The notes beneath the pieces were generated by a model. That model was given only the letters and a program-made list of their open reading frames with translations. It ran no database searches and had not been told where the DNA came from. From an uncultured Gemmatimonadaceae bacterium (GTDB lineage Bacteria; Gemmatimonadota; Gemmatimonadetes; Gemmatimonadales; Gemmatimonadaceae), in NCBI GenBank assembly GCA_963829055.1, contig CAWHHI010000004.1, positions 736,001 through 800,000 on the forward strand: a DNA stretch of 64,000 nt, read 5' to 3'. Each line of letters begins with the position of its first letter. The first letter of the stretch is position 1. Positions 1 through 62,893 of the stretch are shown here, in pieces. The position numbers were made by a program, and so were the translations under genes.

Positions 1-3000
1 GGCGGCGGGTCGATGGTGCTGACGATCAGGAACGAGAAGAACCTCTCGGTCCTCGACTACGCACTGTCGGAGATGGATGTGCGCACGACCCGCTCACGGC
101 TTCGTGGCAGCATGACGTTCGGTGTCGGTGCTCCCGTGCTCATCGTGAAAGACCTCGCGCTGGAAGCGGCGCCGGTCAACTTCGATCTCATTCGGGCGCT
201 GAACGGCAAGCCGTTTCCGTACGACTGGCAGGGTGATCTGACGGGTACCGTCCGCGCGCGCGGCGGACCGGTGAACCGGTTTCACGTTGACGATGCCCGC
301 ATCACATTCGCGGATGCGAACGTGCCGGGAGCGGTGACGCGCGCAACGGGGAAAGGGGATCTCGACATCCTGTTCCCGGCGTTCACCACGTTCCGGGGAC
401 TGGACGTGGACGTAGCGCAACTGGATTTGCGCACGCTGCAGTACCTCAACCCGAACTTCCCGCGCGTCAACGGTATCGTGTCGGGCACCGCCACGCTCGA
501 CTCGATGTGGCTCGACGTCAGGCTCCGGAACGCGGACCTCACGCATCGCGACGGGCCCGGCGACTCCACGCGCGCCACCGGCAGCGGACGTGTCACCATC
601 GGCGACAAGTTCACGAGCTACGATCTCGCATTGAACGCGCAGCCGCTGTCGTTCACGACACTGGCGCGGTCGTATCCGGCACTCCCGCTGCGCGGATCCT
701 ATCAGGGTCCGCTCCGGCTGCAGGGCTCGATCGATGACCTGTCCATCACCACGGAGCTGACTGGCCCGGGCGGAACGTTCTCCTACGATGGCCGCGTCGA
801 CGCGTACCCGCGGAGCTACGCTGCGCGCGGGGCGCTGACGTTCTCGAATCTCGACGTCAGAACGCTGCTCGCCAACGACACGCTTCCGGTGACGTCGCTC
901 AACGGCCGCGTGGACCTCGACGTCGCCGCGGACTCGGCATCGCGTGATTCGACGCTGACGAGCCTCACCGGCCTCGTGTCGGCGACGATCGATCGGTCGG
1001 TCGTCGACAGCATCCGCGTCTATCAAGGGGTGGCGCGCCTCGGATTCGACAAAGGCCGAGTGCGCGTGGATACGCTGCGGATCGAGACGACGGCCGGGGT
1101 GGTGCTCGCCCACGGCGCGTTCGGCCTAACGCCGGTGGTTTCGGACTCGCTCACCTATCGGGTGAGCATCGATTCGCTCGGCGGACTTCGGCGGTACTTC
1201 GGGACCACCGTGACTCAAGGTGTGTCCGTGGCGACGACCGACTCCATCGACGGGTCGGTGGTCGTCACCGGGAGGGTGGGAGGGTCGTTGGATTCACTGG
1301 TCGTGACCGGCGATGTCAATGCGCGGGAGATCTGGGTGCGAGGCGACCAGGCGAAGCACGTGACCGGCGGCTTCGAGGTAGCGCGTGTTCGCAGTGCGCT
1401 CGCCGGGCGATTGAGCCTGCGTGCTGATACCGCGGCGGTCGCAAACGTTGGAGTCACGAGTGCCACGGTCGCGCTCCGCGCGATCGACCGTGAACACGGC
1501 GAATTCCGCGTCGAGGCGACGAGTGCGAATGGGCCACAACTCGCTGTCGTGGGAGCGGCATCGGTTGCGGGCGACACGACGGTCGTCCGATTCGACGAGC
1601 TGGCACTCGGCGTTCGCGAACACAGGCTGAGTCTCGAGCGACCGGCGACACTTACCGTGCGCCCCGATGGCGTGGCGTTGGATTCGCTTCGCATCCGTGA
1701 CGTGAATGCCGGTGTGCTCACCGTCGCGGGCACGCTGCCGACGACTGCGCCGATCGCCTTGACGATTCGCGCGGACAGCGTAGAGCTCGGAGACATCGGC
1801 GAGCTGATTCAGGCAAACGTGCCATTCGGCGGACTCGCCTCGGTGAGCGTGAACATCGCCGGCGTTCGCAGCGCGCCAGAGATCACGATCGACGGATCGC
1901 TGGACCAGCCGCGCTTCGGCGATGTCCGGCTCGATCGCGCGACGCTCGGCGGCAGCTATGTGGCGAGACGCATGCAGGCCAAGGCTGAACTGTTTCGCCG
2001 CGACCGCTCGGTCCTCGCGGTGAACGCGTCGATTCCGGTCGACCTCGCGCTCGCGTCCGTGCCCACGCGAATGCTCGCCGACTCGCTGCGAGGTAACATC
2101 CGCTCCGACAGCGTCGAACTGGCGATTCTCGAGACCGTATCGCCGGCCGTCGTGAACGCCTCCGGAACGTTCGCCGCAAATCTCGACATTGGTGGCGTGT
2201 GGCCACAGCCGACGCTCAATGGCAACCTAACGATCGCCGGCGGCGCGCTCGGACTGGTGCCGTTGGGCCGGGTGAGGCTGACCAATCTCAACGCGAATCT
2301 GAACTTTCTCGGGGACAGCGTTCACGTCGACCGGTTCACAGCGACCACGCGCGAGGAGCGTGTGGGCTCGCTGTCGCTCAGCGGGTTCGCGAGTCTCGCG
2401 AATCGCGATGACCCGCGCTTCGACCTCACCGTATCGGCGCGCGACTTTCACATCATCGACAAGCCACGCGTCGCACATCTCGATGTGTCGGCCTCGAACC
2501 TGCGCCTGGTCGGCTCGTATTCGCGATCGACGCTCACCGGCCTGATCACGGTGGAACGTGGCACCGTGTTCATCCCGGACCTCTTCGAGAAGCAGGTCAT
2601 CAGCCTCGATAGCCCCGAGCTGTACAACATCATCGACACGACGCTGACGACGAACCGCACGCTGTTGCCGAAGGCGCCGCCGGCGCTCGTGAAGAACATG
2701 CTCGTCGAGAACGTGCAGGTCCGGATGGGCAGCGACGTCTGGCTTCGATCGGCCGAGGCGAACATCAATCTGGGCGGAGCCGTTGCGGTCAGGGTGGGCC
2801 ACAGCACGTCGGAGGAGAGTCCATTCGACCAACTCGCGCTCGAGGGAACGCTCACCACGAATCGAGGCACGTACCGTCTCAACCTGGGCATAGCGCAACC
2901 GAAGTTCATCGTCGAGAGCGGGACGGTGCAGTTCCTCGGAGAACCGGATTTCAACGCGATCCTCAACATCAGCGCGTTGAACACTGTGCACCGCGTGTCC

Positions 3001-3612
3001 AGCACCAACCAGGCGGCGCAGGACGTTCGGATTCGCGTGAGGATCGGAGGCACACTCGCGCGACCGCTGCTCACGCTATCAGGCGCCGACAGCCTGCTCA
3101 ACATCTCGCAGACAGACCTGTTCAGCTATCTGCTCACCGGCGGCCCGAGCTTCGCTGTGAACAGTCAGGGCGCGACGGCTAGCCTCCTTCGATCGTTCGG
3201 CAGCTACCTCGGCGACCAACTTCGCGGCTTCGGGCTGTTCGATGTCGTGGACATCGAGCTTGGCCGCCAGGGGATTGTCGCGGGCCAGGGTTTGACCGGC
3301 GGATTGAACAGCATTTTCAGCGGCGCGCGCCTGGGTGTCGGACGCCAGCTTGGCGATCGGGCATTCGTCAGCGCGAATGCGGGACTTTGTCTGGGATCGT
3401 TGCTCGGGGGAAGCTCCAGCAACACCTCCAACCTGTACGAATCGATCGGCGTGAAGATCGACTATCGGCTCAACGAGAACGTCGGCGCGTCAGCGGCGTA
3501 CGAGCCGCCCACGAGCGCGCTGCTGTGTAGCGCGGGCATCGCGGCAGGACGCGGCTTCACGCCAACCCCGCGGCAGTGGGGCTTCGACATTTTCCGAACG
3601 TGGCGGTTTTAA
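1..3612 (+). CDS. TamB/AsmA-like translocation and assembly module protein (5' partial)
   Basis: Frame open from base 1. Long repetitive beta-rich protein with a C-terminal DUF490-like region (GTVQFLGEPDFNAILNISA...VRIGGTLARPLLTLS) ending FDIFRTWRF. Confidence 0.8.
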   Translation, partial: GGGSMVLTIRNEKNLSVLDYALSEMDVRTTRSRLRGSMTFGVGAPVLIVKDLALEAAPVNFDLIRALNGKPFPYDWQGDLTGTVRARGGPVNRFHVDDARITFADANVPGAVTRATGKGDLDILFPAFTTFRGLDVDVAQLDLRTLQYLNPNFPRVNGIVSGTATLDSMWLDVRLRNADLTHRDGPGDSTRATGSGRVTIGDKFTSYDLALNAQPLSFTTLARSYPALPLRGSYQGPLRLQGSIDDLSITTELTGPGGTFSYDGRVDAYPRSYAARGALTFSNLDVRTLLANDTLPVTSLNGRVDLDVAADSASRDSTLTSLTGLVSATIDRSVVDSIRVYQGVARLGFDKGRVRVDTLRIETTAGVVLAHGAFGLTPVVSDSLTYRVSIDSLGGLRRYFGTTVTQGVSVATTDSIDGSVVVTGRVGGSLDSLVVTGDVNAREIWVRGDQAKHVTGGFEVARVRSALAGRLSLRADTAAVANVGVTSATVALRAIDREHGEFRVEATSANGPQLAVVGAASVAGDTTVVRFDELALGVREHRLSLERPATLTVRPDGVALDSLRIRDVNAGVLTVAGTLPTTAPIALTIRADSVELGDIGELIQANVPFGGLASVSVNIAGVRSAPEITIDGSLDQPRFGDVRLDRATLGGSYVARRMQAKAELFRRDRSVLAVNASIPVDLALASVPTRMLADSLRGNIRSDSVELAILETVSPAVVNASGTFAANLDIGGVWPQPTLNGNLTIAGGALGLVPLGRVRLTNLNANLNFLGDSVHVDRFTATTREERVGSLSLSGFASLANRDDPRFDLTVSARDFHIIDKPRVAHLDVSASNLRLVGSYSRSTLTGLITVERGTVFIPDLFEKQVISLDSPELYNIIDTTLTTNRTLLPKAPPALVKNMLVENVQVRMGSDVWLRSAEANINLGGAVAVRVGHSTSEESPFDQLALEGTLTTNRGTYRLNLGIAQPKFIVESGTVQFLGEPDFNAILNISALNTVHRVSSTNQAAQDVRIRVRIGGTLARPLLTLSGADSLLNISQTDLFSYLLTGGPSFAVNSQGATASLLRSFGSYLGDQLRGFGLFDVVDIELGRQGIVAGQGLTGGLNSIFSGARLGVGRQLGDRAFVSANAGLCLGSLLGGSSSNTSNLYESIGVKIDYRLNENVGASAAYEPPTSALLCSAGIAAGRGFTPTPRQWGFDIFRTWRF

Positions 3613-4493: not shown

Positions 4494-7400
4494 GTGGCCA
4501 CTCACTCCGAGCCGGTCGCCACGCCGCTCGCCGCAGACGAGCGATGGACATCCGAGGAGACGGCGTTGCTGGAGGCGTTGCCGCCGTCGCTCGGTGGGCG
4601 ACTCCGCACGCTCCTTCGTGACCGGGATCACTATCTGGCGCTGCACGCGTCGTTGATCGACGGCGAGCGCGCGACGTCGCTCGACGAGCGGCTGCGCCTG
4701 TTCGTGCAGGCGATTCATTCGATCGGCTACGGACGGGTCGGGATCGCAATTCAGGAAAGCGACCACGAGTCGGCCCGCTGCATCGCGGTAGGGATGGAGC
4801 AGCACGAGGTGCTGACCCTCAGTAATGGGCGCCCCGGTGCAACCGATTGGAGTGCGAACGGGGTGCACGTGCTTCCGCTGCGCACCCCCGCGGGTCACCT
4901 GGTCGCCACGCTCGTAGTCGGAGAGCCTGTCGACGACGGCTCCGCGGCCGCCGCGCGCCTCCGGACGATCGACCTGTTCGCGCAACAGGTCGTCCATCAC
5001 ATCGAGCAGGTCCGGCTCTCTGAACTGACCGCGCGTCAGGCCGATCACCTTCAGCGGTTGCAGACCGTAAGCAGCGCGCTCGCTCGCTCACTCGACGAAC
5101 GCGAGATCTCCCTCGAACTCGCGCGCGGCGTCTCGCAACTCATCGCGTGCGACAGCGTAGTCGTCGTGCACCCGGACCTCGAGCGGTCGACCGTCACGCC
5201 GCTGGTGCGGCTCATCGGCAACACGGAGTACTCGTCGACGGAAGCACCGCTCGGGGACGGCGTGATCGCGCGTGTCGCGCGGACCGGCCAGCCCGTGCTC
5301 GTCGCGGAACCTCACCCGGCGGCATCCGAGCTCATCGGAGCCGACGCGCTGGTCATCGCAGCGGGAACACCGGTGGCATCGCTGCTCGCCGTGCCGCTGC
5401 GCGTGGGGCTGCGACTCGTGGCGGTGCTCGCCGTTGCAAGTGTCCAACACGATGCGTTCTCGGATTCCGATGCGGACCTGCTGCTGACGATGGGCGCCCA
5501 GGCCGCGAGCGCGTTGAGCAACGCGCGGCTCTACGCGGAGAGTCAGCGCGAACGACGTCAGACGGAAGCGCTCGCCGACGTCGCGAAGGCGGTGAGCGAG
5601 TCACTTCGGATGGGTGAGGTCATGCGCCTCATCATGCGCCACGCGATGTCGCTGCTTGGCGTGGAAGGCGCGTCCGTCGCGCTCCGCCGGGATGACTATC
5701 TCCACGTCGTTGCGGCCGGTGGCATCGGCGATGTACTGGCCGGCATCGTGCTGCCCGTGCGCGGAAGCATCAGCGGCCGAGCGGTCGTCGATCAGCAGGC
5801 GATCATCGTGAACGACGTGCCTAACGACCCGGACGTCAGTCGGCAGGCGATGCGGCTGGTCCGCGTGCGTAACACGCTCGTCGTTCCCCTGTCGACCGCG
5901 CGCGGCGTCATCGGCACGCTGTCTGTCTTCAATCGCGGCACGGACTTCGAAGAGGCGGACGCGCGTATCCTGCAGCGGCTCGCTGACCACGTTGCCGTCG
6001 CGATCGTCAACGCGCGGCTGTACGAGGAGCTGGCCGAGTCGAGTCGCGAGTGGACGGTGGCGTTCAACGCCATCCCCACCGCGATGGTCGTCATCGACGA
6101 CGACGGTCGCATCGTGCGGTACAACTCCCGCGCGCTCCAACTGGGACACTTCGAGACGCATCGCGAGCTCGTGGGCCGGCAGTTCTATGAAGCGGTGCTC
6201 GCCGAGTCGCGAGCGATCGGCGACGGTTGTCCGCTGTCGCGCGCGCTCCAGGACGGTGTGCTCGGACGAGAGACGATGCGGTCTCCCGTGCGCGGGCTCC
6301 TGTTCGATGTCGTCGCATCGCCGCACCCGAACGGCGGCGCGGTCGTGACGTTCGATGACGTGACCGCGGCGCACACGCTGGCCGAGCGCAATCGACTCGT
6401 GCTCGACACGACGAATGACGCGATCCTCGTGCTCGATCCGGAGCGTCGCATCTCGTTCGCGAATCCCGCCGCGACCGAACTGCTCTCCGGGCGAGGTGAG
6501 TTGATCGGCACGGCGCTCTCGGCGCTGGTGCCGCCAGAGCACGCCGATGAGATCGAGGCACACGCAGCGGCGACGGCGAACGGCGAGGCGAGGCGGTATG
6601 ACGCTGTGTTCGTCCGGGCGGACAACGACCGCCGCCAGGTGTCGGTGAGCCAGTCGGCGCTGCGCGATGTCACGCGCGTGATCGGGACAGTCGTCGTGCT
6701 ACGCGACATGACTGACGAGCGACGCGCGCGCGACGCGATGACACAGTCCGAAGCGCGGTATCGCAACATCTTCGAGACCGCCACCGACCCGCTGTTCACA
6801 CTCGATACGCGCGGGAGTGTCACGTCAGCGAACGACGCCACATGTCATCTGTTCGACGCATCTCGCGAGGAGCTGCTCGGGCGTCCGATCGCGGGCTGGG
6901 TCGATTCCTCTGATCGCGATGCGGTGTTGGCGGCGTTCCGCGATTCAGGACTCGGCAGAGGGCACCGGTTCGAGTGCGCCGTCGCACGAGGTAGCGGCGA
7001 GCGGCGTCGCGTGTCGGCGACCACGACGCCCATCCGGCACGGTGGACGCGTAACAGGTGTGCTGGTCCTCGCGCGAGACGTGACGGAGCATCGGGAGCGT
7101 GACGCCGCGCTGGCTCGTTCGGAAGCCCGATACACGGATCTGGTGGAGTCAGCGTCCGACGCGATCTTCACGGTCGATCGCGATGGCAACTTCACGTCGG
7201 TGAATCGCGCGCTCGAGATCGCGACCGGGAAATCGCGCGCCGAGCTTCTTGGCGCGCACTTCAATACGGTGATCGACGCCCGTGACCGCGAGGAGTGCGG
7301 GCAAACGCTGCTCGATGCGCTTCAGGGCCGACGCGAACGGCGCGAGCTTCGCTACCTGGATGGGAACGGCGTCGCGCGACCAGGGGCCATGCTCGCGTCA

Positions 7401-8588
7401 CCGGTGACCGAAGGCGACACGGTCGTTGGCGCGATGGGTGTGGTGCGCGATGTGGGTGAGGAGAAGCTGCTGGTGGAGCAGCTCGTCCAGCAGGAGAAGC
7501 TCGCCGCGATCGGGCAGCTCGTGAGCGGTGTCGCGCACGAGCTGAACAACCCGTTGGCCAGCGTGATGGCGTTCTCGCAACTCGTGCTCACGAGTGTGCA
7601 TAACGACGAGGAGCGTGACGACGCGCTGCGCACGATCAACGGCGAGGCCAAACGCGCCGCGAAGATCGTCTCGAACCTCCTCACATTCGCCCGTCAGCAT
7701 CCGCCGCAGCGCACGACGACGTCGGTCAACGACGTGCTCGCGACCGTGTTGGAGATGCGTCGTTATGTGCTCCGGGTTCACGGCATCGAGCTCGAGGAGC
7801 GACTCGACCCGAACGTGCCGCGGATCTGGGCCGATCAGTTTCAGCTGCAGCAGGTGTTCCTCAATCTCATCGGCAACGCGGAGCAGGCACTGCGCGACTG
7901 GCCGGGTGAGCATCGCATCCACGCGACCACGGAAGTGCGCGGCGGTCGCATCCTCGTCACCGTGCGCGATTCGGGGCCGGGCATTCCGGCGGCCGAGATC
8001 GATCGCGTGTTCAATCCGTTCTACACGACGAAGGCGATCGGGAAGGGCACAGGGCTTGGGCTGTCGGTTTCCGACGGCATCATCCGCGAGCACGGCGGCT
8101 CGATTCGCGTCGAGGCGCGCGATCAGGGCGCGTCGTTCGTCGTCGATCTTCCGATCATCGCGCCGCCTGGCGCCGAGCCGATTGGCGGAGCCGAGCCGGT
8201 TGTACACCCGTCGGGCGATCGTGCGCTGACAATGTTGGTCGTCGACGACGAGCCTGCCATCCGATCGGCCATCGTGCGGTACTTCGGCGGGCTCGGGCAC
8301 ACTGTCGATGCGGCGGGCACAGGAGCGGAGGCGTATGCGCTGCTCGAGAGTCGTCGCTATGATGCACTGCTGCTCGATCTGCGAATGCCGGACACGAGCG
8401 GCGATGCCATCTACCGCGACCTCCTCGAGCGCGATCCGACGCACGCATCGCGAGTCATCTTCCTCACGGGGGATGTGCAGAGCGACTCCACCCAGCGGTT
8501 CATCGAGGAGACCGGGCGCGCGAGTGTCATGAAGCCGTTCACGTTCGACGAGCTCACCCGGGCGGTGCTCGCTCAGGCTGCGCGCTGA
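4494..8588 (+). CDS. Cytoplasmic hybrid sensor histidine kinase (GAF x2, PAS x4, HisKA, HATPase, REC)
   Basis: H-box VAHELNNPL, N-box QVFLNLIGNA, G-boxes DSGPGI and GTGLGL, C-terminal REC (VVDDE...LLDLRMP). No obvious TM helix. Confidence 0.92.
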   Translation: MATHSEPVATPLAADERWTSEETALLEALPPSLGGRLRTLLRDRDHYLALHASLIDGERATSLDERLRLFVQAIHSIGYGRVGIAIQESDHESARCIAVGMEQHEVLTLSNGRPGATDWSANGVHVLPLRTPAGHLVATLVVGEPVDDGSAAAARLRTIDLFAQQVVHHIEQVRLSELTARQADHLQRLQTVSSALARSLDEREISLELARGVSQLIACDSVVVVHPDLERSTVTPLVRLIGNTEYSSTEAPLGDGVIARVARTGQPVLVAEPHPAASELIGADALVIAAGTPVASLLAVPLRVGLRLVAVLAVASVQHDAFSDSDADLLLTMGAQAASALSNARLYAESQRERRQTEALADVAKAVSESLRMGEVMRLIMRHAMSLLGVEGASVALRRDDYLHVVAAGGIGDVLAGIVLPVRGSISGRAVVDQQAIIVNDVPNDPDVSRQAMRLVRVRNTLVVPLSTARGVIGTLSVFNRGTDFEEADARILQRLADHVAVAIVNARLYEELAESSREWTVAFNAIPTAMVVIDDDGRIVRYNSRALQLGHFETHRELVGRQFYEAVLAESRAIGDGCPLSRALQDGVLGRETMRSPVRGLLFDVVASPHPNGGAVVTFDDVTAAHTLAERNRLVLDTTNDAILVLDPERRISFANPAATELLSGRGELIGTALSALVPPEHADEIEAHAAATANGEARRYDAVFVRADNDRRQVSVSQSALRDVTRVIGTVVVLRDMTDERRARDAMTQSEARYRNIFETATDPLFTLDTRGSVTSANDATCHLFDASREELLGRPIAGWVDSSDRDAVLAAFRDSGLGRGHRFECAVARGSGERRRVSATTTPIRHGGRVTGVLVLARDVTEHRERDAALARSEARYTDLVESASDAIFTVDRDGNFTSVNRALEIATGKSRAELLGAHFNTVIDARDREECGQTLLDALQGRRERRELRYLDGNGVARPGAMLASPVTEGDTVVGAMGVVRDVGEEKLLVEQLVQQEKLAAIGQLVSGVAHELNNPLASVMAFSQLVLTSVHNDEERDDALRTINGEAKRAAKIVSNLLTFARQHPPQRTTTSVNDVLATVLEMRRYVLRVHGIELEERLDPNVPRIWADQFQLQQVFLNLIGNAEQALRDWPGEHRIHATTEVRGGRILVTVRDSGPGIPAAEIDRVFNPFYTTKAIGKGTGLGLSVSDGIIREHGGSIRVEARDQGASFVVDLPIIAPPGAEPIGGAEPVVHPSGDRALTMLVVDDEPAIRSAIVRYFGGLGHTVDAAGTGAEAYALLESRRYDALLLDLRMPDTSGDAIYRDLLERDPTHASRVIFLTGDVQSDSTQRFIEETGRASVMKPFTFDELTRAVLAQAAR

Positions 8589-9973: not shown

Positions 9974-10171
9974 ATGGCCGAGCTGCGCGAGCGAGACGCC
10001 ATGGTGTGCCGGGCGTGCAGGAAGGAGGAGCGCGCGTCGGAGGGCTACCCGTGCTCCGACTGTGGTCGCTTCATCTGCAACATGTGCAACATGCGCGGCG
10101 TGCTCCGGTGTGAGGACTGCGCACAGCCCGCGGGCGCGTCGGCGGTGAAGGCTCCCGCAACCGGCGCGTGA
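9974..10171 (+). CDS. Small Cys-rich putative double zinc-binding protein
   Basis: 65 aa with four CxxC pairs. GGGGG SD-like site upstream. Stop overlaps the next start (GTGA). Confidence 0.7.
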   Translation: MAELRERDAMVCRACRKEERASEGYPCSDCGRFICNMCNMRGVLRCEDCAQPAGASAVKAPATGA

Positions 10172-11160: not shown

Positions 11161-11919
11161 CTGACGTCGCCATCGTTCGGGCGGCGATCGCGCCGATGCA
11201 TGCAGAGGCTCGCGTGTCCAGCGCTCAGATCTCGCAGCGATTGGCCGGTCACGCGGTCACGGTGAAGTTCACCGAAGGCGACTGGATGCGCGTGTTCGGC
11301 GAAGACGGCTACGAGGGCTGGATGCATCGCGGCTACGTCCACTTCGCGACCGACACGCCGGTCTCGCCCGACGACCGCCGTCTCTCGCTCGGATGCGTCG
11401 TTCGTGATCGCGAGCGAGGCTGGTCGCGAGCGCTCCCGTTAGGCGCCTGGCTCAGCTCGAGCGAGACCGTCGTCACGGGCTACGCGCTCGAGCCGCGTGG
11501 GACGCACCGCTGCCTTGCCGCGCGACGCATCGTCGGTTGCCACGACCGCGGTCGAGCGCTTCGCTGGCACGCCATATCAGTGGGGCGGTGTCACGCCGTG
11601 GGGCGCCGACTGCTCGGGGATCGTGCAGACCGCGTTCTGGCTGCACGGTGTGATACTTCCGCGCGACGCGTGGCAGCAGGCGGAGGTGGGTCGCGCGGCG
11701 GGGAGTGACATGTCGCGCTGGGATGCTGGCGATCTGCTGTTCTTCAGCGAACGGGCAGACGGGCGCATCACGCACGTCGGGATCGCGCTCGGCGGCGGCC
11801 GCATGGTGCACCTGGCCCTCGGTCGCGGCGGCTATGCCGTGGAGCAACTCGACCTTCACGACGACGCCTACGTGACGTCGCTCATGTCGCGCTTCGTCAC
11901 GGCGCGCCGCGTGATCTGA
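11157..11919 (+). CDS. SH3b + NlpC/P60 (C40) cell-wall peptidase, YkfC-like; frameshift near 11495
   Basis: N-part (GDWMRVFGEDGYEGWMHRGY) in one frame. C40 motifs GTPYQWGG, DCSG, LPRDAWQQ, GDLLFF, HVGI in the 11497 frame. Confidence 0.85.
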
Positions 11920-46293: not shown

Positions 46294-46327
46294 CGTCGCC
46301 GGTCCCCAGTCCTCCGTCCCCAGTCCC
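46205..46327. repeat. Inverted GGGGACT/CCCCAGT heptamer arrays spanning a gene junction
   Basis: ggggattggggactggggactcgggactggg (46205-46235) and gtccccagtcctccgtccccagtccc (46302-46327); a further array at 44295-44315. Confidence 0.78.
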
Positions 46328-49488: not shown

Positions 49489-50835
<1,347 letters not shown>

Positions 50836-50871
50836 AGCGGTAAGATATTCCAGCGTTACCTTCCCCGCCCG

Positions 50872-53093: not shown

Positions 53094-53095
53094 CA

Positions 53096-53836
53096 ATGGC
53101 GTGGACGCCGGCCGACTGCCACGCGCATTCGACCATGTCTGACGGCGCGCTCGACGTGGCCGAGCTCGTCGAGCGCGTCACCGCCCGTGGCGTTAGGCCG
53201 AGCGTGAGCGATCACGTGTCGCGTGACGTCACTGGCGCCGTCGATTCCGTCGACGCCGTCCGCGAATACCTCGATGTGCTCGACCGTTACCCCGTGGCGC
53301 GGGGCGGCGAGTTCTGCTGGCACGACACGCTCTGGCGTGAGCTTCCCGACGACCTCGCGGCGCGATTCACCCATCGCCTGGGCTCTCTGCACGCGATCTT
53401 CCTCGACGACGGCATGCTGGTGCACGCGTTCTCCAAGCGGTATCCGACATCGCTGTCCCCTGCGGCGTATATGAACGCGCTCATCGCGAACGCCGAGCGA
53501 ATGGCGGCGACCATGCCCGTCGACATCCTGGCGCATCCCACGCTCGTCACGCTGTCGCTCCGCAACCTGCCGGTGGAGGAGCTGTGGACCGAGGAGCACG
53601 AGGAGCGTCTCGTGAACGCGCTGTTCGAGGCCGGCAAGGCGTTCGAGGTATCGTCGCGATACAAGCCGCACGAGCGGCTCGTTAGGCGCGCCGTCGACCG
53701 GGGCGTTCGCCTCTCGCTCGGGTCCGACGGGCACACCGCCGAGCAGGTCGGGGATCTCACCTTTTCGCTCACGCTCGCGCGCCATTGCGGCGCGCGGGAC
53801 GAGGATCTCTTCGATCCGTACGAGCGAGGCCCGTGA
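53096..53836 (+). CDS. PHP domain protein
   Basis: DCHAHSTMSDG, SDH, GSLH, ILAHP, LGSDGH. Confidence 0.85.
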   Translation: MAWTPADCHAHSTMSDGALDVAELVERVTARGVRPSVSDHVSRDVTGAVDSVDAVREYLDVLDRYPVARGGEFCWHDTLWRELPDDLAARFTHRLGSLHAIFLDDGMLVHAFSKRYPTSLSPAAYMNALIANAERMAATMPVDILAHPTLVTLSLRNLPVEELWTEEHEERLVNALFEAGKAFEVSSRYKPHERLVRRAVDRGVRLSLGSDGHTAEQVGDLTFSLTLARHCGARDEDLFDPYERGP

Positions 53837-53861
53837 ACGCAGCGAACGCAGTGAACGCACC

Positions 53862-55310
53862 ATGATCCGCTACCACGCACGCTGGGTGTTACCCATATCA
53901 CGACCGCCGCTCGAGAACGCGACGGTCGTCGAGCATGAGGGCCGAATCGTGTTTGTCGGCGGCCCCGCTGACGCCCCACCCGGCACGGACGTGGACCTCG
54001 GCGACGTCGCGCTGCTCCCCGGTCTCGTGAACGCGCACACTCACCTCGAGCTCACCGTGATGCGCGGTTTCCTCGAGGACCTCGCGTTTCGCTCGTGGAT
54101 CACGCGCCTCACACGGGCGCGCCGCGCCGCACTCTCGCCCGACGCGCTCGTCGAGTCGGCTCGCGCCGGAATCGCCGAGGGGCTGCTCGCTGGCATTACC
54201 ACGTACGCAGACACGAACGAATCCGGCGCTCCGTTTCGAGCGCTGCTACAGATGGGCGTGCGCGGCATCGCGTATCAGGAAGTGTTTGGTCCTGACCCGG
54301 CGCAATGCGCGGAGGCGCTCGGCGGATTGCGCGCCAAGGTCGACGTGCTCCGTCGCGACGAAAGCACGCTGGTGAGCGTTGGCGTGTCTCCGCATGCGCC
54401 ATATTCGGTGTGCGACGCGCTGTTCGAGGCGACTGCGAAGTACGCACGCGAGGACGGGCTGCCGGTCGCCGTCCACATCGCCGAGAGCGAGGACGAATCC
54501 AGTCTGGTTCGGCATGCCACGGGGCTCTGGGCCGACGATCATCGGCAGCGGGGAATACCGACGGTTTCGCGCGGTGCCTCTCCGATTCGCATGCTGGAGC
54601 GGACCGGTGTGCTCGACGCCCGGCCCCTGCTCATCCACTGCGTTCGCGCGGACGCCGACGACATCGGCGTCATCGCTCGTCACGACTGCTCGGTCGCCCA
54701 CTGTCCGGCATCGAACGCGAAGCTGGGCCACGGGATCGCGCCGCTGTTCGCGATGCTCGAAGCCGGAATCCGCGTCGGCCTCGGCTCGGACTCGGTCGCG
54801 AGTAACAACCGAATGGATCTGCTCGACGAAGCCCGTCTGGCGATCCTCATGCAGCGAGCGGTGCTCGAGCGCCACGACATCGTCAGCGCGTCGGTGGCGC
54901 TCGAGCTCGCGACGTTAGGCAGCGCACGCGCGATCGGCCTTGGCGCGGAGATCGGGTCGCTGGACGTCGGCAAGGCGGCAGACCTGGCTGCGTTCCGGCT
55001 CGATCAGCCGCGGTCGATGCCGGTCTACGATCCCGCGACGGCCCTCGTGTTCTCGACTTCAGGACCCGCGGCGACGTTCGTTGCCGTGGCCGGCCGGCCG
55101 CTCGTGCGCGATGGACGCCTCGTCGGCGATGCCGCCAAGCGCACCAAGCGTCGATGCCGCCGCCAACGCGCTCGCCGACTGGTCGCGTCGCGACCCCGGC
55201 GCGTTCCCGGCGCCCACCGCCATTACCCGTTAGGTACCGGAGCCCGCCACCGCCTCCTCGAGGGCAAGAAATTCCGCGCCGGGCTGGTCAGGCATGTGGG
55301 CTGCTCCTGA
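53862..55310 (+). CDS. Amidohydrolase family protein (MtaD/5'-deoxyadenosine deaminase-like); C-terminus possibly frameshifted near 55140
   Basis: PGLVNAHTHL, SPHAPYS, HIAES, HCPASNAKL, LGSDS, GSLDVGKAADL. Confidence 0.88.
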   Translation: MIRYHARWVLPISRPPLENATVVEHEGRIVFVGGPADAPPGTDVDLGDVALLPGLVNAHTHLELTVMRGFLEDLAFRSWITRLTRARRAALSPDALVESARAGIAEGLLAGITTYADTNESGAPFRALLQMGVRGIAYQEVFGPDPAQCAEALGGLRAKVDVLRRDESTLVSVGVSPHAPYSVCDALFEATAKYAREDGLPVAVHIAESEDESSLVRHATGLWADDHRQRGIPTVSRGASPIRMLERTGVLDARPLLIHCVRADADDIGVIARHDCSVAHCPASNAKLGHGIAPLFAMLEAGIRVGLGSDSVASNNRMDLLDEARLAILMQRAVLERHDIVSASVALELATLGSARAIGLGAEIGSLDVGKAADLAAFRLDQPRSMPVYDPATALVFSTSGPAATFVAVAGRPLVRDGRLVGDAAKRTKRRCRRQRARRLVASRPRRVPGAHRHYPLGTGARHRLLEGKKFRAGLVRHVGCS

Positions 55311-57240: not shown

Positions 57241-57939
57241 TTACTTCCCGGTTCTGAATGTTTCGGTCCGCTGCTCATACCGGCGCTTTTCGCCCCCGAG
57301 CAGCCGAGTTGCCAGAGTGGAAAGTCCCCGGCCTAACGCGGTCCCCGGATTTCGTTTGCCGCGCACCGCGGGACGCAGCTCGCCGCTCAGCCAGCGTTCC
57401 ACTTCATCGAGATCGGACATCGACAGCACTTCGACCTCGAGGGACACGATGTAGTACTGACGGGCGCGGGCGCGTCGGGCCGGAAGCGGCGCCGTGTACG
57501 GGCGAGCGATCGCCGCCTGCGCGTCCTCATAGCGTTCGAAGCGGCCGAGGTTCTCTGCCTTGTTCCCGATCACCCTCGCCACCCGGTACGTCTTGGTCAG
57601 CGGCTCGTAGCGAACGAACACGTCCCACTCGATCGACGCCTCGATGTCATCGAACCAGCCACCGCGCGACCACAGATCGGCACGGTAATGCAGGTTCGCG
57701 GGGAAGCCGTTCTGCAGCAGCTTCTGCAGTTCGCGATCGGCGATGACGTTCGCGGTGCGAATGACCGGTCCGGCGGGAGCGGGCGATGCGGCAGGCAGCG
57801 ATACGTCGATTCCCGCAGCCTGCTGCACAATGGCAGGCGCGTCCGCGCGATCAGGCTGGTCGCGGCGCGCCGACTGCTGCGCAATCGCAGCAGTGGCCAT
57901 GGATACCACCAGAACCAGCGCGCCCGCGAACGATTGCAC
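57241..57939 (-). CDS. Exported DUF4390-like protein
   Basis: Signal peptide; 'LQKLLQNGFPANLHY...W.D...RYEPLTKTYRV' pattern. Confidence 0.6.
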   Translation of the reverse strand: MQSFAGALVLVVSMATAAIAQQSARRDQPDRADAPAIVQQAAGIDVSLPAASPAPAGPVIRTANVIADRELQKLLQNGFPANLHYRADLWSRGGWFDDIEASIEWDVFVRYEPLTKTYRVARVIGNKAENLGRFERYEDAQAAIARPYTAPLPARRARARQYYIVSLEVEVLSMSDLDEVERWLSGELRPAVRGKRNPGTALGRGLSTLATRLLGGEKRRYEQRTETFRTGK

Positions 57940-57942: not shown

Positions 57943-59688
57943 CTAGAACCGTTTGCCAACGCGAATAAAAAAGTTCGGCGGTTCCTTCGAGTCCGACACG
58001 GACTTCGCGACGTACAGCCCGAAGAGGCCGGCGTCGAACCCAGCGCCGATGTCCGTCTTGAACGTACCGAGCGACGGCAGGTCACCCTTCGGATATTGCA
58101 AGTCGCCGATGCGCTCGCCGACGAGCCACCCGCGTCCGGCGTCCGTGAACACCACCCACTGAGCGCGGTGCTGCCAGCCGCTGTTGCGCCACGAATTGAA
58201 GTGGAGATTGTCGAACAGCGACATCCAGAGATCGCCGCGATACTCCGCCTGCACGAGCACCATCCGCTCGCACTGCGCCGGCACGCCTAACGGGATGGTG
58301 GCACCATCGCTGCATTGACGAACGTCAGTGTCGGACCCGGTTCGCCGGAACGGAAACCCGTCGAGCGCTCCAGGCCCGCCAAGAGAAAACCGGCGCTGGA
58401 GTGGTAGCTCGTCTCCGTTCAGCCAACCGCCGGCCACGACGCGGAAGTTGAGCTGTCCTTCGGGCGACAGACGGTTATAGCGCCGGAGATCGAGGAACCC
58501 ACGCGAATAGGCCATGGAACCAGCCGACGCTGCGTCGCGTACGCCGGGTGACGTCGGACCTAACGCCGTGAGTGCGCCGGTGCCCCGCTCGTAATCAGCC
58601 GTGATCTTCCAGCCCGATCGCGGATCATCATTATCGCTGCGCGTATCGATGCGCAGGGTCCCATTCGCGACGTGCAGCGTGCCTTCGTCGAGCGTGGGGT
58701 TCGGACGCCAGTCCTGGCCGTTCCGGAAGAGCGTGAATGGATCGAGCGTGTTCAGTGATACCCAGCGCTCATCGCTGAGGGACGCGGTGACGTCGACGCT
58801 CCTCGAGAGCGAGAACCTGACGTAACCGGACCCGCCGTGGCGGCTGTAGTAGTCGCGGAAGTCTCGGTGCAGGAAGAACGATGACAGCCCGACCTCGGCA
58901 TCGGACAACTGCCACGCCTCCACCGGATCCACCACGTCGAACAGCCGCCCGCCGATCGCCAGGCCCTCGGCACGGCCAAACGACAGCTCGGTCTTCAGGT
59001 TGTGGCCGACGGTCTGCGAGTTCCACTCGAGCTGATCGCCCGTCCTGAACACGCCGAGCGCATCGATCTCGAAGCGGCCGTCGCCGAAGCGATGACCGAA
59101 TGACGGGCCGATGAGAATCGGCAGGCCCTCGACGCGATTGTAGGTCTTGGCCGACACGAGGCGCAGTTGACTGTAGTTGCGCGAGTGCCAGTTCTGACGC
59201 CATCGCCACCAGCGTGCATCCTCCTCGCTCGACCCGGACGCGATCAGGTGGTCCCCTTCGCGCCGGTACGTGAGGCGTTGCTTGTACGTCCGGACGTCTC
59301 CGCCAATGAACGCGTCGTCCTTCCCATCGACGCCTCCGCCGACGACGATGATCTGCCCTTCGACGCGCGCACCTGGCTTGAGGATCACGTCCGAGTTGAT
59401 CGCGACCACGCGTCCGTTCACGCGCCCGGCAATCGTGAGCGGCCCGTTCAGAACCGCGACGTCACCGGGGATGACGCGGTCCGCTTCGATCTCGTAGGCG
59501 CCGGTGGCGCGGACGGTCGTCCCCGAGTTGAACGCGTCCGTGACCTCGCGCTCGATCTCAGGAGGTAAAAGCCGGGTATCGAGAACCGTGTCGCGCGGCG
59601 TTGCCGGCTGCTGCGCGCCGACCGGCGTGAGAGGAGCGACCGCGCACATCAACGTGGCGAGTGCGCGAGTCGCGAAGAGCTTCTTCAT
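57943..59688 (-). CDS. Omp85/BamA-TamA-like outer membrane beta-barrel with an N-terminal beta-helix (bactofilin-like) segment
   Basis: Signal peptide; GDVAVLNGPLTIAGRVNGRVVAINSDVILKPGARVEGQIIVVGG; YNRVEG; 'LPLQRRFSLGGPGALDGF'; C-terminal FFIRVGKRF. Confidence 0.75.
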   Translation of the reverse strand: MKKLFATRALATLMCAVAPLTPVGAQQPATPRDTVLDTRLLPPEIEREVTDAFNSGTTVRATGAYEIEADRVIPGDVAVLNGPLTIAGRVNGRVVAINSDVILKPGARVEGQIIVVGGGVDGKDDAFIGGDVRTYKQRLTYRREGDHLIASGSSEEDARWWRWRQNWHSRNYSQLRLVSAKTYNRVEGLPILIGPSFGHRFGDGRFEIDALGVFRTGDQLEWNSQTVGHNLKTELSFGRAEGLAIGGRLFDVVDPVEAWQLSDAEVGLSSFFLHRDFRDYYSRHGGSGYVRFSLSRSVDVTASLSDERWVSLNTLDPFTLFRNGQDWRPNPTLDEGTLHVANGTLRIDTRSDNDDPRSGWKITADYERGTGALTALGPTSPGVRDAASAGSMAYSRGFLDLRRYNRLSPEGQLNFRVVAGGWLNGDELPLQRRFSLGGPGALDGFPFRRTGSDTDVRQCSDGATIPLGVPAQCERMVLVQAEYRGDLWMSLFDNLHFNSWRNSGWQHRAQWVVFTDAGRGWLVGERIGDLQYPKGDLPSLGTFKTDIGAGFDAGLFGLYVAKSVSDSKEPPNFFIRVGKRF

Positions 59689-59916
59689 GCGATCTCCGAG
59701 GAGGAATCGAGTCGCGCACACGCTAGGCACTGTCCATACCGGTGCCTGACCAGAGTCCTGAGGCACGGTACCGACAAACACCGCAACGGGTTCCCGAATC
59801 CGCAAGATACCACCCGCCTTGTCCCGGTGTCCTTTCGTGAGGTCGTGGGTGTGTCGGGCCGTTACGCCGTCCGCAGTAAGCGTGTCACACGCACCGAGCC
59901 CGGAACGGCGCGCGGG

Positions 59917-61357
59917 CTAGGCGCGGCGCGACTCGACGGGCGAGCTCGACGGCGTGTCTGCACGCTCGCTCCGATCCCCTCGATCGGGTTCGACGATGCC
60001 GAGTCGCTTCATCCTGCGGTACAGGTTCGGCCGATCCGTTTGCAGCCTGCGCGCGGCCTCTGCGATGTTGCCGCCCGCGACGGAGAGTGCGCGTGTGATG
60101 AGAACGCGCTCGTATTCATCGAGCGTATCGGTAAGCGGAGTATCCAGCGCCGCCGCGTTAGGTAGCGTCGGAGGGTGCGGGGAACGCGCTGACGCCACCG
60201 GCAGCACTTCACGCACGTCGTCACTCGTGACCTGGCGGCCGGGGTAGAGAATCGCGAGTCGCTCCACGATGTTCGCGAGCTCGCGGATGTTCCCTGGCCA
60301 GCGATGCCGCGCGAGCGCGTCGAGCGCGTCGGCGCTCCACGACGTGAGCGGCTGCCCGGTGCGTCCGCGGTGCAGGGCGGAGAAATGGCGTACGAGGGCT
60401 GGGATGTCGTCCGGCCGTTCGCGCAGTGGGGGGATCGCGAGCGGAATGACGTTCAGCCGAAAGAACAGGTCCTCGCGGAACGTGCCGTCCTCGACAGCGC
60501 GCGTGAGGTCCTTGTTCGTTGCCGAGAGGATGCGAACGTCGATCCGGATGGGTTTTCCCCCGCCGACGCGCTCGATCTCACCGGACTCGATCGCCCGCAA
60601 CAGCTTTGCCTGGGCCTCGGCACCGAGGTCCCCAACCTCGTCCAGGAGCAGCGTGCCGCGGTCTGCCAGCTCGAAGCGGCCGATGCGGCGCTCTGTCGCA
60701 CCGGTGAACGCGCCTCGCTCGTGACCGAACATTCTCGCTCTCGACGAGATCGCGTGGAATGGCCGCGCAGTTGACCCGAATGAACGGCCGATCCTTGCGT
60801 GCTCCTCCGGCGTGAATCGCCGCAGCGACGAGCTCCTTGCCCGTTCCTGATTCCCCGGTGATCAGCACGCGCGCGTCCGACGGTGCGACGCGCGCGATCA
60901 TGTCGCGCACTCGCCGGAGCGCAGGGCTCTGGCCGATCATCTCGCCGGCGAGCCCGAGGTCGGCGCGCAGGACGCGTGCTTCTCGCCTTGCGTGCCGCAG
61001 CTCGAGCGCCGATGACAGTGCCAGCAGCACGCCTTCAGGCGTGAGCGGCTTCTCGAGGAAGTTGAACGCACCGAGCTTGGTGGCGTGCACCGCATCGCTC
61101 AGCCCGGCGCGACCGCTCATCATGACGACAGGCAACTCGGGCGTGCGCTCGCGAAGGGCGGCGAGAACGGCCATGCCGTCCATCTCGCCGGGCATCATGA
61201 GGTCGACGAGCGCGACGTCGGGCTCCGCCTCGGTCGCGAGCGCGACACCGCGGGCGCCATCGGGCGCCTCACGGACCTCGTAGCCTTCCGAAGTGAGCAA
61301 CGCGCCCACCATGCGGCGGATGTTCGGCTCGTCGTCAACGATGAGGACGGAGGGCAC
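59917..61357 (-). CDS. Sigma54-dependent response regulator (NtrX/NtrC family); frameshift near 60733
   Basis: REC, GESGTGKE and VNCAAIP in one frame. MFGHERGAFTGA, LLDEVGD, WPGNIREL and HTH in the next frame. Confidence 0.92.
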
Positions 61358-61363
61358 GACCGC

Positions 61364-61943
61364 CTAACGTGCTTCGCGCGCGCGCAGCGGAACAGCGACG
61401 CGGTCGGCGCCGGGATCTCCCTGCGGGAGCGAGCGCATCTCGGCCATGACCTTCGTCGTGAAGCGCTGGCCTTCGGAGATGCGCTCGACCTCTACGGCGA
61501 TCGATTCTACCGCCTGCTCGATGCGCTCGAGTCGTGCGCGCGTATCGGAATCGGCTCCGGGCGTAACCGCGTTGCGCCTGTCCATGCGTCGCGCGATTGC
61601 CCGTGCGATGGGGAATCCGATCGCGATCACGGCGCACATGATGAAGAACGCCACGGAGATGATGATCGCCCCTTCAGGAACCTGCGGCCCGGAGTTCGGA
61701 AACGGCGGGAACATTATTTCCGGCCGTCCATTCCGCCCGGCACGCCCGGCCTCGCGTTGCGCGTCGCGAATGGCGCGCGCCGCTTCACGGGCGGCCTCGC
61801 GTGCAGCCTGCGCGGCCTCCTGCGCAGCCTGCTGCGCTTCCTGTTGGGCGGCGGCTGCTTGCTGTTGCGCCGCCTGCTGCCTGTGTCTGCGCCTGTGCCT
61901 GCGCCTGCTGCGGGCCTGCCACTGCGATCGGTTCAACGGCCAT
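61364..61943 (-). CDS. EGQRF-motif membrane/coiled-coil protein, paralog 1 (Q/A-rich N-terminal extension; frameshift near 61880)
   Basis: GGAGG + ATG at 61943; TM helix; ARLERIEQAVESIAVEVERISEGQRFTTKVM. Confidence 0.75.
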
Positions 61944-62583: not shown

Positions 62584-62596
62584 TGGTTTGATCCTC

Positions 62597-62893
62597 TCAG
62601 TCTCTGCGCGCGAGCGCGCTGTCGGGTCGACCGGCATCGGCGCGACCCGCGAGGAGCTTCGACGTGAAACGTTGTCCCTCGGCGATTCGCTCGACCTCTA
62701 CCGCAATGGCATTGATCGCCTGCTCCATACGCTCGAGCCTCGCGCCTATCTCGTTAGGCACCGATTCCGGCGAGCCGCCACGAACACCGTGTTCGATTCG
62801 TCGCGCGATGGCCCGCGCGATCGGCGCGCCGATGACGGTGATCGGAACCATTGTGAAGAGCACGATCGGGATCAGCTCACCGGGAATCCGCAC
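62597..62893 (-). CDS. EGQRF-motif membrane/coiled-coil protein, paralog 4
   Basis: GGAGG + GTG; TM helix; ARLERMEQAINAIAVEVERIAEGQRFTSKLL. Confidence 0.8.
   Translation of the reverse strand: MRIPGELIPIVLFTMVPITVIGAPIARAIARRIEHGVRGGSPESVPNEIGARLERMEQAINAIAVEVERIAEGQRFTSKLLAGRADAGRPDSALARRD

Follow-up and report, generated by a model that had tools for sequence, protein, structure and literature searches.

A stretch of 64,000 nucleotides from the genome of an uncultured soil bacterium of the Gemmatimonadaceae (hereafter the window; positions 736001-800000 of contig C4 in its own genome assembly, designated G000) is densely populated with an asymmetric 8-nucleotide word, CGTTAGGC. Analysis of the complete assembly and of its relatives shows that this is a real, lineage-specific, hyper-abundant DNA word which is maintained at the DNA level, against the codon habits of its own genome, and not via the encoded proteins. 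We tentatively interpret the word as an uptake-sequence-like self-tag with a putative sequence-specific reader; this is the best supported of the mechanisms considered here. The word had been singled out by a model that worked from the letters of the window (hereafter the original prediction) and took it for a genome-wide DNA-level signal of the same kind as the highly iterated palindrome (HIP1) of cyanobacteria or the DNA uptake sequences (DUS) and uptake signal sequences (USS) of Neisseriaceae and Pasteurellaceae. This assessment is borne out by the copy number, the independence of reading frame, the retention in orthologues and the recurrence in related genomes that are described below.

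The G000 assembly comprises 7.78 Mb in 20 contigs, with a GC content of 66.6%, a completeness of 85.9% and a contamination of 3.95%. Its gene map is a crude one, based on the GC content of third codon positions (GC3), and consists of 4988 open reading frames (ORFs) that cover 67% of the genome. Throughout, G-numbers are labels of genomes, C-numbers denote contigs, and L-numbers denote loci or contigs of this analysis. In the window, the heptamer CGTTAGG occurs exactly as originally listed, in 42 copies (22 as CGTTAGG and 20 as CCTAACG), whereas 100 dinucleotide-preserving shuffles contained 2.45 on average and never more than 6. Most of the copies had been said to extend to a longer form, and 31 of the 42 indeed reach the 8-mer CGTTAGGC. 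The whole of G000 contains 6391 copies of CGTTAGG (3237 on the forward and 3154 on the reverse strand), or 0.82 per kb, and 5004 copies of CGTTAGGC, compared to 131 and 102 copies expected under Markov models of order 1 and 2, respectively, which amounts to a 38-49-fold excess. Because the word dominates its own sub-words, it is hidden in a ranking by the Markov model of maximal order, and lower orders were therefore used; in this ranking, CGTTAGGC is by far the top 8-mer and the remaining top words are its sub-words or extensions. It is also the most frequent among the 1680 permutations of its own letters (the median permutation is found 269 times), and the reversed word has 373 copies.

In the reverse-complement writing the word reads GCCTAACG; its core is GTTAGG, with the flanking C present at 89% and 78%, and 7103 of the 7392 TTAGG pentamers lie inside GTTAGG. 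Outside the eight bases, the sequence logo of the flanks is nearly flat and holds almost no information. The commoner one-mismatch neighbours are CGTCAGGC (1763 copies) and CGTTCGGC (1720), which are GC-richer and whose high counts are ordinary for a genome with 67% GC, followed by CGTTAGGT (827), CGTTATGC (583) and TGTTAGGC (435), with all others rare. The two neighbours that the original prediction had named as a check, CGTTAAGC and CCTTAGGC, are represented by 24 and 9 copies, a level not comparable to the 5004 copies of the word itself.

Several lines of evidence place the signal in DNA rather than in protein. Within the crude ORFs, the word is read in all four frames that do not produce a stop codon, so that the original observation of several reading frames extends to the entire genome: it encodes x-Leu-Gly in 1411 cases, Pro-Asn in 1101, Leu-Thr in 740 and Val-Arg in 556, and the neighbouring residues are diverse. 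A further 2583 copies lie outside the crude ORFs, and the word supplies the stop codon of 391 among 4981 crude genes, contributing 222 of the 631 TAA codons (35%) and 169 of the 1340 TAG codons. Given the four coding frames, the stop frames, the intergenic copies and the diversity of the adjacent residues, an explanation at the protein level was rejected; a small mobile element, such as a miniature inverted-repeat transposable element (MITE), was likewise rejected as the source of the word, given that the flanks are not conserved. The codons that had been noted as rare are rare genome-wide: TTA accounts for 1.48 per 1000 codons, with 55% of its occurrences within the word, CTA for 2.16 (20% in the word), AGG for 4.66 (7%) and CCT for 5.08 (12%). 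When synonymous codons were shuffled within each gene (10 shuffles, in which the rare codons brought by the word itself are retained), 280-326 copies were obtained, with a mean of 310, against the 3826 observed in the 4988 crude genes. The 12-fold enrichment over this codon-preserving control thus sustains the claim of a signal beyond codon usage.

The strand balance that had been used to set the word apart from Chi and from the FtsK-orienting polar sequences (KOPS) is a property of the complete genome. Both orientations are balanced on 20 of 20 contigs; across 143 bins of 50 kb, the correlation of word orientation with GC skew is r=0.08 (569 forward and 526 reverse copies in the 28 bins with skew above 0.01, and 814 and 839, respectively, in the 41 bins with skew below -0.01), and the correlation with gene strand is r=0.01. 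All Chi sequences known to us are strongly skewed with replication, and KOPS are likewise skewed. Given the lack of any bias with respect to strand, GC skew or gene strand, a Chi-like or KOPS-like signal was excluded. The copies are spaced more evenly than random, with a mean gap of 1201 nt and a median of 883 nt; 408 gaps are shorter than 200 nt, against 977 for random placement, and there is a surplus of gaps of 400-1600 nt.

The phyletic distribution was assessed by comparing the count of the word with that of the reversed word in the same genome, for the 41 closest relatives and for 301 genomes drawn from the phylum; the tallies of word-poor genomes include the unpublished G013, G085, G124 and G203, none of which is word-rich and on which no conclusion depends. 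Among the 41 relatives, CGTTAGGC exceeds the control in 14 and is rarer than the control in most of the others. All seven members of the genus are rich in the word (2501-5112 copies), as is G014 from another genus, with 6360 copies in 5.1 Mb at 62% GC and the first rank among the words of a 260-kb sample; intermediate levels were found in G010, G019, G020, G036, G038 and G040. In the phylum-wide set, the word is above control in 13 of the 199 genomes of the order to which the window belongs and in none of the 102 genomes of other orders. The distribution is therefore patchy and confined to one order of Gemmatimonadota. The genus designated g46 is discordant, with 3896 copies in G240 and 4141 in G297 but only 66 in their congener G293. 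In G297, the shared core is the 7-mer GTTAGGC, the 5' C being relaxed (87 copies, 53 of them with a 5' C). A 130-kb sample of G293 contained one copy of the word and no other dispersed hyper-abundant word, and in the word-poor relatives sampled (213 kb of G016 and the same 130 kb of G293) no alternative word was found. The G293 sample (L211-L220) also showed CTTTCTG in overlapping 9-mers, with 27 copies per 130 kb against 0.5 expected, probably a repeat of this genome, either tandem or dispersed. A dialect was detected in G010, where CGTTTGGC is present in 925 copies (110 for its control) beside 605 copies of CGTTAGGC; this variant is not enriched in any other of the 41 genomes.

The word also populates replicons other than chromosomes. 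In the first 50 kb of each of megaplasmids 1 and 2 of the cultured strain Gemmatirosa kalamazoonensis KBS708, GTTAGGC is the top 7-mer, with 39 and 25 copies (0.78 and 0.50 per kb) against 1.7 and 0.7 expected. The IMG/VR database was scanned for pairs of copies 400-430 nt apart, and the 80 readable loci are of two kinds. The first kind consists of integron attC arrays, that is, alternating pairs of inverse core and core 50-110 nt apart or, in low-GC contigs, arrays on one strand; the second consists of dispersed copies outside any attC context. The clearest case of the second kind is the 16,975-bp phage contig L305, which encodes a portal protein (E 3e-131), the large and small terminase subunits and a scaffold protein, and which carries 35 copies of GTTAGGC (2.06 per kb; 31 of the 35 with a 5' C) inside the portal, terminase and scaffold genes. 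Dispersed copies were also seen in L249 (12), L276 (12) and L278 (9), three loci on two viral contigs. None of the viral contigs is closely similar to G000. As a separate observation, attC-type arrays with perfect GCCTAAC/GTTAGGC boxes are present on contigs classed as viral in IMG/VR (L266/L267, L256, L272, L238, L259 and L268, and the low-GC L242, L233 and L265); L266 additionally encodes phage DNA-ejection, tail-spike, exonuclease and methyltransferase proteins.

Comparison of orthologous sites reveals conservation over short and turnover over longer evolutionary distances. Positions 18000-37999 of the window were aligned with five congeneric genomes (DNA identity about 79%), and the 7-mer was intact in 37 of 62 site-genome pairs, compared to 20-24% of all 7-mers, with the caveat that these genomes are kin and the pairs are not independent; conservation at orthologous sites, which the original prediction had put forward as a check, is thus observed. 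Flanking bases often differ around an intact word, and the usual state where the word is lost is CGTCAGG. Between genera, 9 of 60 CGTTAGGC sites of G014 are also the word in G000, against a background of 11% (72.7 kb alignable, 72% identity). In word-poor genomes, the orthologous states are CGTTCGGC, CGCTCGGC, CGTGCGGC and the like. The word is gained by point substitutions, often against the GC pressure and sometimes with a change of amino acid. From the combination of conservation within the genus and turnover between genera, it follows that each lineage builds up its copies independently and at places of its own.

Three stretches of G000 of 31-50 kb (C6:5440-55038, C11:1-44055 and C6:591808-623330) hold no copy of the word. 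They are located at contig ends, and encode housekeeping enzymes and no phage genes, with many ORFs that look fragmented. A prophage or genomic island origin was rejected for these stretches given that they contain second copies of single-copy housekeeping genes, namely FtsK, AroC, TrpBA, TrpG and PepA, which are 47-56% identical to the copies elsewhere in G000; another bacterium probably contributed them, as chimeric or contaminant DNA. At the least, the existence of such stretches within the same assembly shows that it is the lineage, rather than the sample or the sequencing platform, to which the word belongs.

The density, symmetry, frame independence, even spacing, dialects and lineage specificity of the word match those of uptake sequences, which makes an uptake-like self-tag the best supported mechanism. 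For comparison, DUS are described as present in 2000-6000 copies, one per 400-1100 bp, in eight dialects and with DUS-poor islands (PMC7371117). Under the uptake interpretation, a component of the DNA-exchange machinery would prefer DNA that carries the word, giving word-bearing alleles an advantage over alleles without it in entering conspecific genomes and recombining with them. Point mutations that give rise to the word (the usual precursors are CGTCAGG, CGTTCGG and CGCTCGG) would then spread, with the endpoint of about one copy per kb in every kind of sequence that tolerates the word. Biased uptake or recombination would be the driving force of the process, and a dedicated receptor would have to exist.

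Several observations weigh against this scenario, and three of them, the mismatch with the competence genes, the copying of the word by a phage and the identity with an integron box, keep our confidence in it below an even chance. G000 does encode competence and pilus components, namely ComEC, DprA, a ComEA-like helix-hairpin-helix (HhH) gene next to two PilT-type ATPases, a secretin and a PilB-type ATPase. However, ComEC was detected in 40 of the 41 relatives and the ComEA-type domain in all 18 rich and poor genomes tested, including the word-poor G293, G016 and G007. The competence genes are equally present in poor relatives and accordingly do not explain the patchy pattern, so that a correlation with these genes had to be discarded. 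A search of G000 (86% complete) for a ComP_DUS-type pilin (PF16732) gave no match at E <= 0.1. Pairs of copies at most 60 nt apart in G000 (15 in the +- arrangement, 13 in -+, 29 in ++ and 24 in --) show no excess of inverted pairs of the terminator type. We know of no uptake bias or natural transformation in Gemmatimonadota, and in a literature search that did not cover subscription journals, no paper on a DNA uptake sequence in this phylum was found. The density of 2.06 copies per kb in the structural genes of phage L305 is more easily explained by an intracellular reader than by uptake of chromosomal fragments. Finally, GTTAGGC fits exactly the integron core GTTRRRY, an identity that the original prediction had missed; because only 16 of the 16384 heptamers per strand conform to this consensus, a coincidence is doubtful, and the uptake model leaves it unexplained.

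One alternative is that the word is an intracellular self-tag, such that a cytoplasmic nuclease, a helicase-nuclease or a defence system spares or processes DNA depending on its word content. Such a tag would be Chi-like without orientation dependence, and chromosomes, megaplasmids and phages would all be selected to carry it. The density in L305, host-like or higher and outside any attC context, is consistent with this possibility, as are the dispersed copies on other viral contigs (L249, L276 and L278), the presence of the word on both Gemmatirosa megaplasmids and the zero count in the apparently foreign DNA of G000. On the other side of the balance, no reader of this kind was identified, the known Chi sequences are strongly replication-skewed whereas the present word is not, and the viral contigs are not close to G000. 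Furthermore, mobile elements that have long co-evolved with a DUS-bearing host are reported to acquire its DUS (PMC7371117), so that carriage by a phage is compatible with uptake and does not exclude it. Altogether, we consider an intracellular tag unlikely.

The identity with integron boxes calls for a closer examination. Integron cores are given as R' 5'-GTTRRRY-3' and R'' 5'-RYYYAAC-3' (PMC12901181, PMC10127599), and integrons are on record in Gemmatimonadota (PMC8618304); GTTAGGC fits the former and GCCTAAC the latter. A sister family includes word-poor genomes whose few copies are clustered in one orientation with a spacing of 500-650 bp; there, CGTTAGGC forms the 3' end (R') of a conserved repeat of about 90 nt that folds as a typical attC, with GCCTAAC about 80-90 nt upstream of GTTAGGC and paired inner boxes. 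Such cassette arrays were found in G027, G025 and G029, one of them adjoining a fragmentary integron integrase gene (TIGR02249, E 2e-64). Large arrays with highly homogeneous attC of about 90 nt were noted at G027:C95:1-24000, C43 and C80 of the same genome, G025:C3 and G029:C113 (L195-L200). A full-length integron integrase is also encoded by G000, at C20:208041-208958 (TIGR02249, 266 bits with a cut-off of 265) within an integron spanning C20:190546-208958, in which attC-like hairpins ending in GCGTTAGGC lie on one side of intI in the same orientation.

The word could be tied to integron recombination, given that R boxes are what the integron integrases (IntI) bind and cleave; its copies would then be functional or by-product sites of IntI (attI-like or attG-like), or be recognized by a reader that shares the specificity of IntI. 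Apart from the exact fit to both consensus boxes, the role of the word as the R' end of attC hairpins next to an IntI fragment in the word-poor G027, G025 and G029, and the sites of the G000 integron, this possibility draws on the shared core in g46, which is exactly the 7-mer GTTAGGC (87 copies vs 53 with the 5' C). However, the presence of IntI does not track the word. The integrase was detected in 29 of the 41 relatives, many of them word-poor, as well as in all 8 additional genomes examined from the order, including the poor G293, such that chromosomal integrons are the rule in this order, whereas no integrase was found in G010 or in the word-rich G002 and G004, and G014 yielded only fragments; a direct correlation with IntI therefore failed. 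Convergent RCCTAAC...GTTAGGY pairs number at most 57, against 36 in a control arrangement, among 6491 sites, so that less than 2% of these copies can be attC sites. Nor does the enrichment follow the degeneracy of the consensus: CGTTAGAC and CGTTAAGC have 24 copies each in G000, and the G010 dialect, GTTTGGC, breaks GTTRRRY. Off-target recombination by IntI at such sites is reported to cause inversions and deletions (PMC10127599), and thousands of sites should therefore be harmful. No recombination route was found that turns neighbouring words into the motif by point substitution. A direct tie to integron recombination thus appears improbable. In a broader form of this idea, to which we also assign a low probability, the word would be read by the integron machinery or by a reader sharing its specificity, chromosomes, megaplasmids and phages would be saturated with working R boxes, and DNA exchange would be coupled to integrons, for example through an uptake or recombination self-tag borrowed from, or lent to, the cassette core site.

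Alternatively, the word might be the site of an abundant nucleoid-associated or chromosome-organizing protein, with weak selection on each copy explaining the regular spacing. A spacing of greater than random regularity, with too few close pairs, the lack of orientation dependence, and the presence of the word on chromosome, megaplasmids and phage alike are compatible with such a role. We are not aware, however, of any bacterial protein with thousands of specific 8-bp sites inside genes. Selection on each site would have to overcome codon bias, and sometimes the choice of amino acid, at about 6400 places; site turnover between genera is nearly complete; and G293 manages with 66 copies where its congeners G240 and G297 have about 4000. 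Hence, a nucleoid protein site seems rather unlikely.

The methylase or repair mechanism, the third of those originally suggested along with uptake and protein binding, fares worse than the other two. As in HIP1, a methyltransferase or a very-short-patch-type repair system would over-correct near-cognate sequences into the word, and there is a formal resemblance in that an eight-base word with a six-base core has semi-specified flanks, as in G-CGATCG-C of HIP1. Sites of bacteriophage exclusion (BREX) or type IIG systems carry an A at position 5, as in CCTAAC. Two methylase-like genes exist in G000: a D12-class gene, and a protein of about 1075 residues with an Eco57I/MmeI-like N6-adenine methylase domain (C8:73751-77791; L176/L179), followed by an SNF2/ResIII helicase ORF. 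Neither tracks the word, and a correlation with methylases was accordingly rejected: the D12 gene, present also in the word-poor G007, G009, G013, G015, G017, G018 and G023, could not be found in G010 or the rich G014, and the Eco57I-domain protein is encoded by one long ORF in 40 of the 41 relatives across the order, irrespective of word content. The families PF00145 (C5), PF01555 (N4/N6), PF02384 (N6_Mtase) and Vsr (PF03852) were not found in G000, at 86% completeness. Very-short-patch repair is further disfavoured by the direction of the substitutions that create the word, which is mostly from GC to AT (CGTCAGG to CGTTAGG), the opposite of the T:G-to-C:G change of patch repair. We regard a HIP1-like origin through these enzymes as quite improbable. 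An origin by chance, codon usage or an artefact of assembly or sequencing, to which we attach a negligible probability, is excluded by the window and codon shuffles and by the word-free stretches within the same assembly, and a platform artefact, against which the original prediction had demanded independent data, by the hyper-abundance of the word in every one of the 7 assemblies from the genus, and likewise in other genera, in the megaplasmids of a cultured strain with a finished genome and in phage contigs from other samples.

Two families of dispersed repeats were encountered in the window. At 30892-31062 lies a palindromic element resembling MITEs or repetitive extragenic palindromes (REP), with terminal inverted repeats GTCATTCCGAGC...GCTCGGAATGAC; it has 389 BLAST matches, corresponding to about 215 elements, in G000 and dozens of copies per genome across the genus. 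This family is separate from the word and accounts for the other enriched k-mers TCGGAATGA, AGTCGAGGAA and TCCGCTCGGA. The GTTAGG core is found within 30 nt of an end in 32 of the 215 copies, vs 2.3% per random 30-nt window, which we read as intergenic co-location rather than targeting. A second dispersed repeat, with long inverted arms, is located at about 35820-36380 between a peptidase S9 gene and ruvA; it has 35 BLAST matches in G000 and matches in all five genus genomes compared.

The gene content of the window is ordinary housekeeping (a TamB-like gene, lgt, tsaD, rsmB, def, tgt, queA, ruvA, tyrS, PBP1 and others), and the best relative of its Tgt is a protein from a metagenome-assembled genome (MAG) of Gemmatimonadota, with 69% identity. 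The statement that nearly all copies lie inside genes holds for 30 of the 42, whose ORFs match a Pfam family (the originally named genes lgt, tsaD, rsmB, def, ruvA and tyrS are among them), and for 6 more in crude ORFs; the remaining 6 are unassigned or intergenic. In the following account, + and - denote the strand of CGTTAGG, coordinates are those of the heptamer, and a site reads CGTTAGGC unless another form is named. In the left part of the window, the TamB-like ORF (13-3612(+)) holds the sites at 1125-1131(-) and, in the form CGTTAGGT, 2226-2232(-). The site at 5820-5826(-) is in a PAS/GAF histidine kinase ORF (4494-8588(+)), 10520-10526(+) in a peptidase S58 ORF (10168-11160(+)), 11437-11443(+) in an ORF with an SH3_3 domain (10428-11708(+)), 14669-14675(+) in a CYTH-domain ORF (14062-14808(+)), and 15358-15364(+) in overlapping ORFs that have no family. 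Next come 18380-18386(-) in lgt (18301-19152(-)) and 20105-20111(-) in tsaD (19267-20325(-)), the latter kept in 5 of 5 genus genomes. A CGTTAGGT site at 20624-20630(+) is in a crude ORF without a family (20378-20707(-)), and 21727-21733(-) is in an AhpC/TSA ORF (21133-21753(-)). The site in rsmB (23125-24510(-)), at 23581-23587(+), is kept in 4 of 5 genus genomes; at the site in def (27159-27713(-)), 27194-27200(+), the other five genus genomes have CGTCAGG or CGTCCGG, so that this is a gain in G000.

In the central part, 29439-29445(+) is in a crude ORF (29371-29958(-)), 30883-30889(+) is at the 5' end of the queA ORF (29846-30898(-)) and abuts the MITE-like repeat, and 32316-32322(-) is intergenic, just 3' of an aminotransferase ORF (32342-33499(-)). 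The peptidase S9 ORF (33539-35593(+)) contains three sites, namely 34331-34337(-), in the form CGTTAGGT, the 7-mer of which is kept in 5 of 5 genus genomes with varying flanks, 34790-34796(-) and 34986-34992(+). The site at 36116-36122(+), in the form CGTTAGGG, is in a crude ORF (35788-36216(+)) inside the dispersed repeat region. Two sites are in ruvA (36394-36972(-)), 36491-36497(-) and, as CGTTAGGT, 36710-36716(-). A CGTTAGGG site at 42274-42280(-) is in a response-regulator/PglZ ORF (40906-42465(+)), 43810-43816(+) is in an ABC transporter ORF (42485-44317(+)), and no gene is assigned to 44466-44472(-). Another CGTTAGGG site, 45042-45048(+), is in a glycosyltransferase-1 ORF (44777-45439(+)), and 45789-45795(+) is in a glycosyltransferase-2 ORF (45427-46293(+)). 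The lipid A acyltransferase ORF (46014-47240(+)) holds 46381-46387(+), in the form CGTTAGGT, and 46599-46605(-). In the right part, 47824-47830(-) is in an ABC permease ORF (47257-48147(+)), 49079-49085(+) in a class-V aminotransferase ORF (48175-49296(+)) and 49501-49507(-) at the 3' end of tyrS (49489-51687(-)). The site at 53191-53197(+), after the PBP1 ORF (50524-53142), has no gene assigned, and 53680-53686(+) is in the upstream part of a crude ORF (53616-55307(+)). An amidohydrolase ORF (53862-55310(+)) contains 54913-54919(+) and the CGTTAGGT site 55228-55234(+), a DUF4390 ORF (57241-57939(-)) contains 57332-57338(-), and an ORF without a Pfam family (57943-59805(-)) contains 58286-58292(-) and, as CGTTAGGT, 58559-58565(-). 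Finally, 60156-60162(+), also CGTTAGGT, is in a sigma-54 activator ORF (59917-60732(-)), 61363-61369(-) is intergenic, 6 nt upstream of a response-regulator ORF (60578-61357(-)), and 62752-62758(+) has no gene assigned.

Some of the ORFs of the window are split. At 59917-61357(-), the sigma-54 activator appears as two overlapping ORFs, one with the receiver and profile positions 1-69 and the other with positions 70-167 and the helix-turn-helix (HTH) domain; the peptidase S9 at 33539-36785(+) is likewise split, and a similar frameshifted appearance is shared by the two methylase-like genes of C8. Frameshifts or indel errors of the assembly could be the cause. At 40906-42465(+), a response-regulator receiver is fused to a PglZ domain, alone amid housekeeping genes.

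The original prediction knew of no description of the motif, and no published one was found in our search of the literature, subscription journals being outside its coverage. Hyper-abundant self-words are experimentally established, as uptake sequences, in only two proteobacterial families, and the mechanism of cyanobacterial HIP1 is not known. The present word adds a new phylum, Gemmatimonadota, which is widespread in soil, and four features together make the question testable: this new phylum, the cultured carrier Gemmatirosa kalamazoonensis, the natural experiments provided by the word-free congener, the genome with a one-letter dialect and the phage that copies the word, and the exact identity with the integron core. 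Identification of the reader would reveal either sequence-selective DNA exchange in soil bacteria or a new form of marking self-DNA, and could link such marking with the capture of gene cassettes. On the practical side, the binning of these genomes, and the recognition of chimeric or foreign DNA in them, can draw on the word as a sharp marker.

Four known systems invite comparison. The Chi octamers read by RecBCD/AddAB, as well as KOPS and the SpoIIIE recognition sequences (SRS) read by FtsK/SpoIIIE, are, like the present word, short, over-represented, asymmetric words, and each is read by a motor protein, but our word is unskewed and several-fold denser. HIP1 of cyanobacteria (GCGATCGC) is a hyper-abundant 8-mer with about one copy per kb, located in genes, conserved beyond expectation and of unresolved mechanism; unlike CGTTAGGC, which is not its own reverse complement and for which no cognate methylase was found, HIP1 is palindromic and linked to methyltransferases that recognize its core. 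The R boxes of integrons (in attC, in attI and in secondary or attG sites) are identical in sequence to the word, and integrons of G000 and its relatives use exactly CGTTAGGC as R', but more than 98% of the copies in G000 lack a partner box, hairpin or cassette and lie within conserved housekeeping genes, in numbers unrelated to IntI. The uptake sequences are the 12-mer DUS of Neisseriaceae, which is read by the minor pilin ComP, and the USS of Pasteurellaceae, which has a 9-mer core and the receptor of which is not known. The present word differs from these in being shorter (8 bp with a core of 6), in forming no inverted-pair terminators, in occurring in a genome where no ComP_DUS homologue was found and in a phylum without known natural transformation, in being carried by a phage at host-like density, and in coinciding with the integron core. 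As for a depletion in recently acquired DNA, the three word-free stretches of G000 look like chimeric or contaminant DNA rather than islands, and a phage and the megaplasmids carry the word. Nevertheless, the present word shares with DUS and USS the thousands of copies at about one per kb, the equal representation of both strands, the location in several reading frames as well as in intergenic regions, the lineage specificity with a dialect in a related genus, and the turnover of sites between genera.

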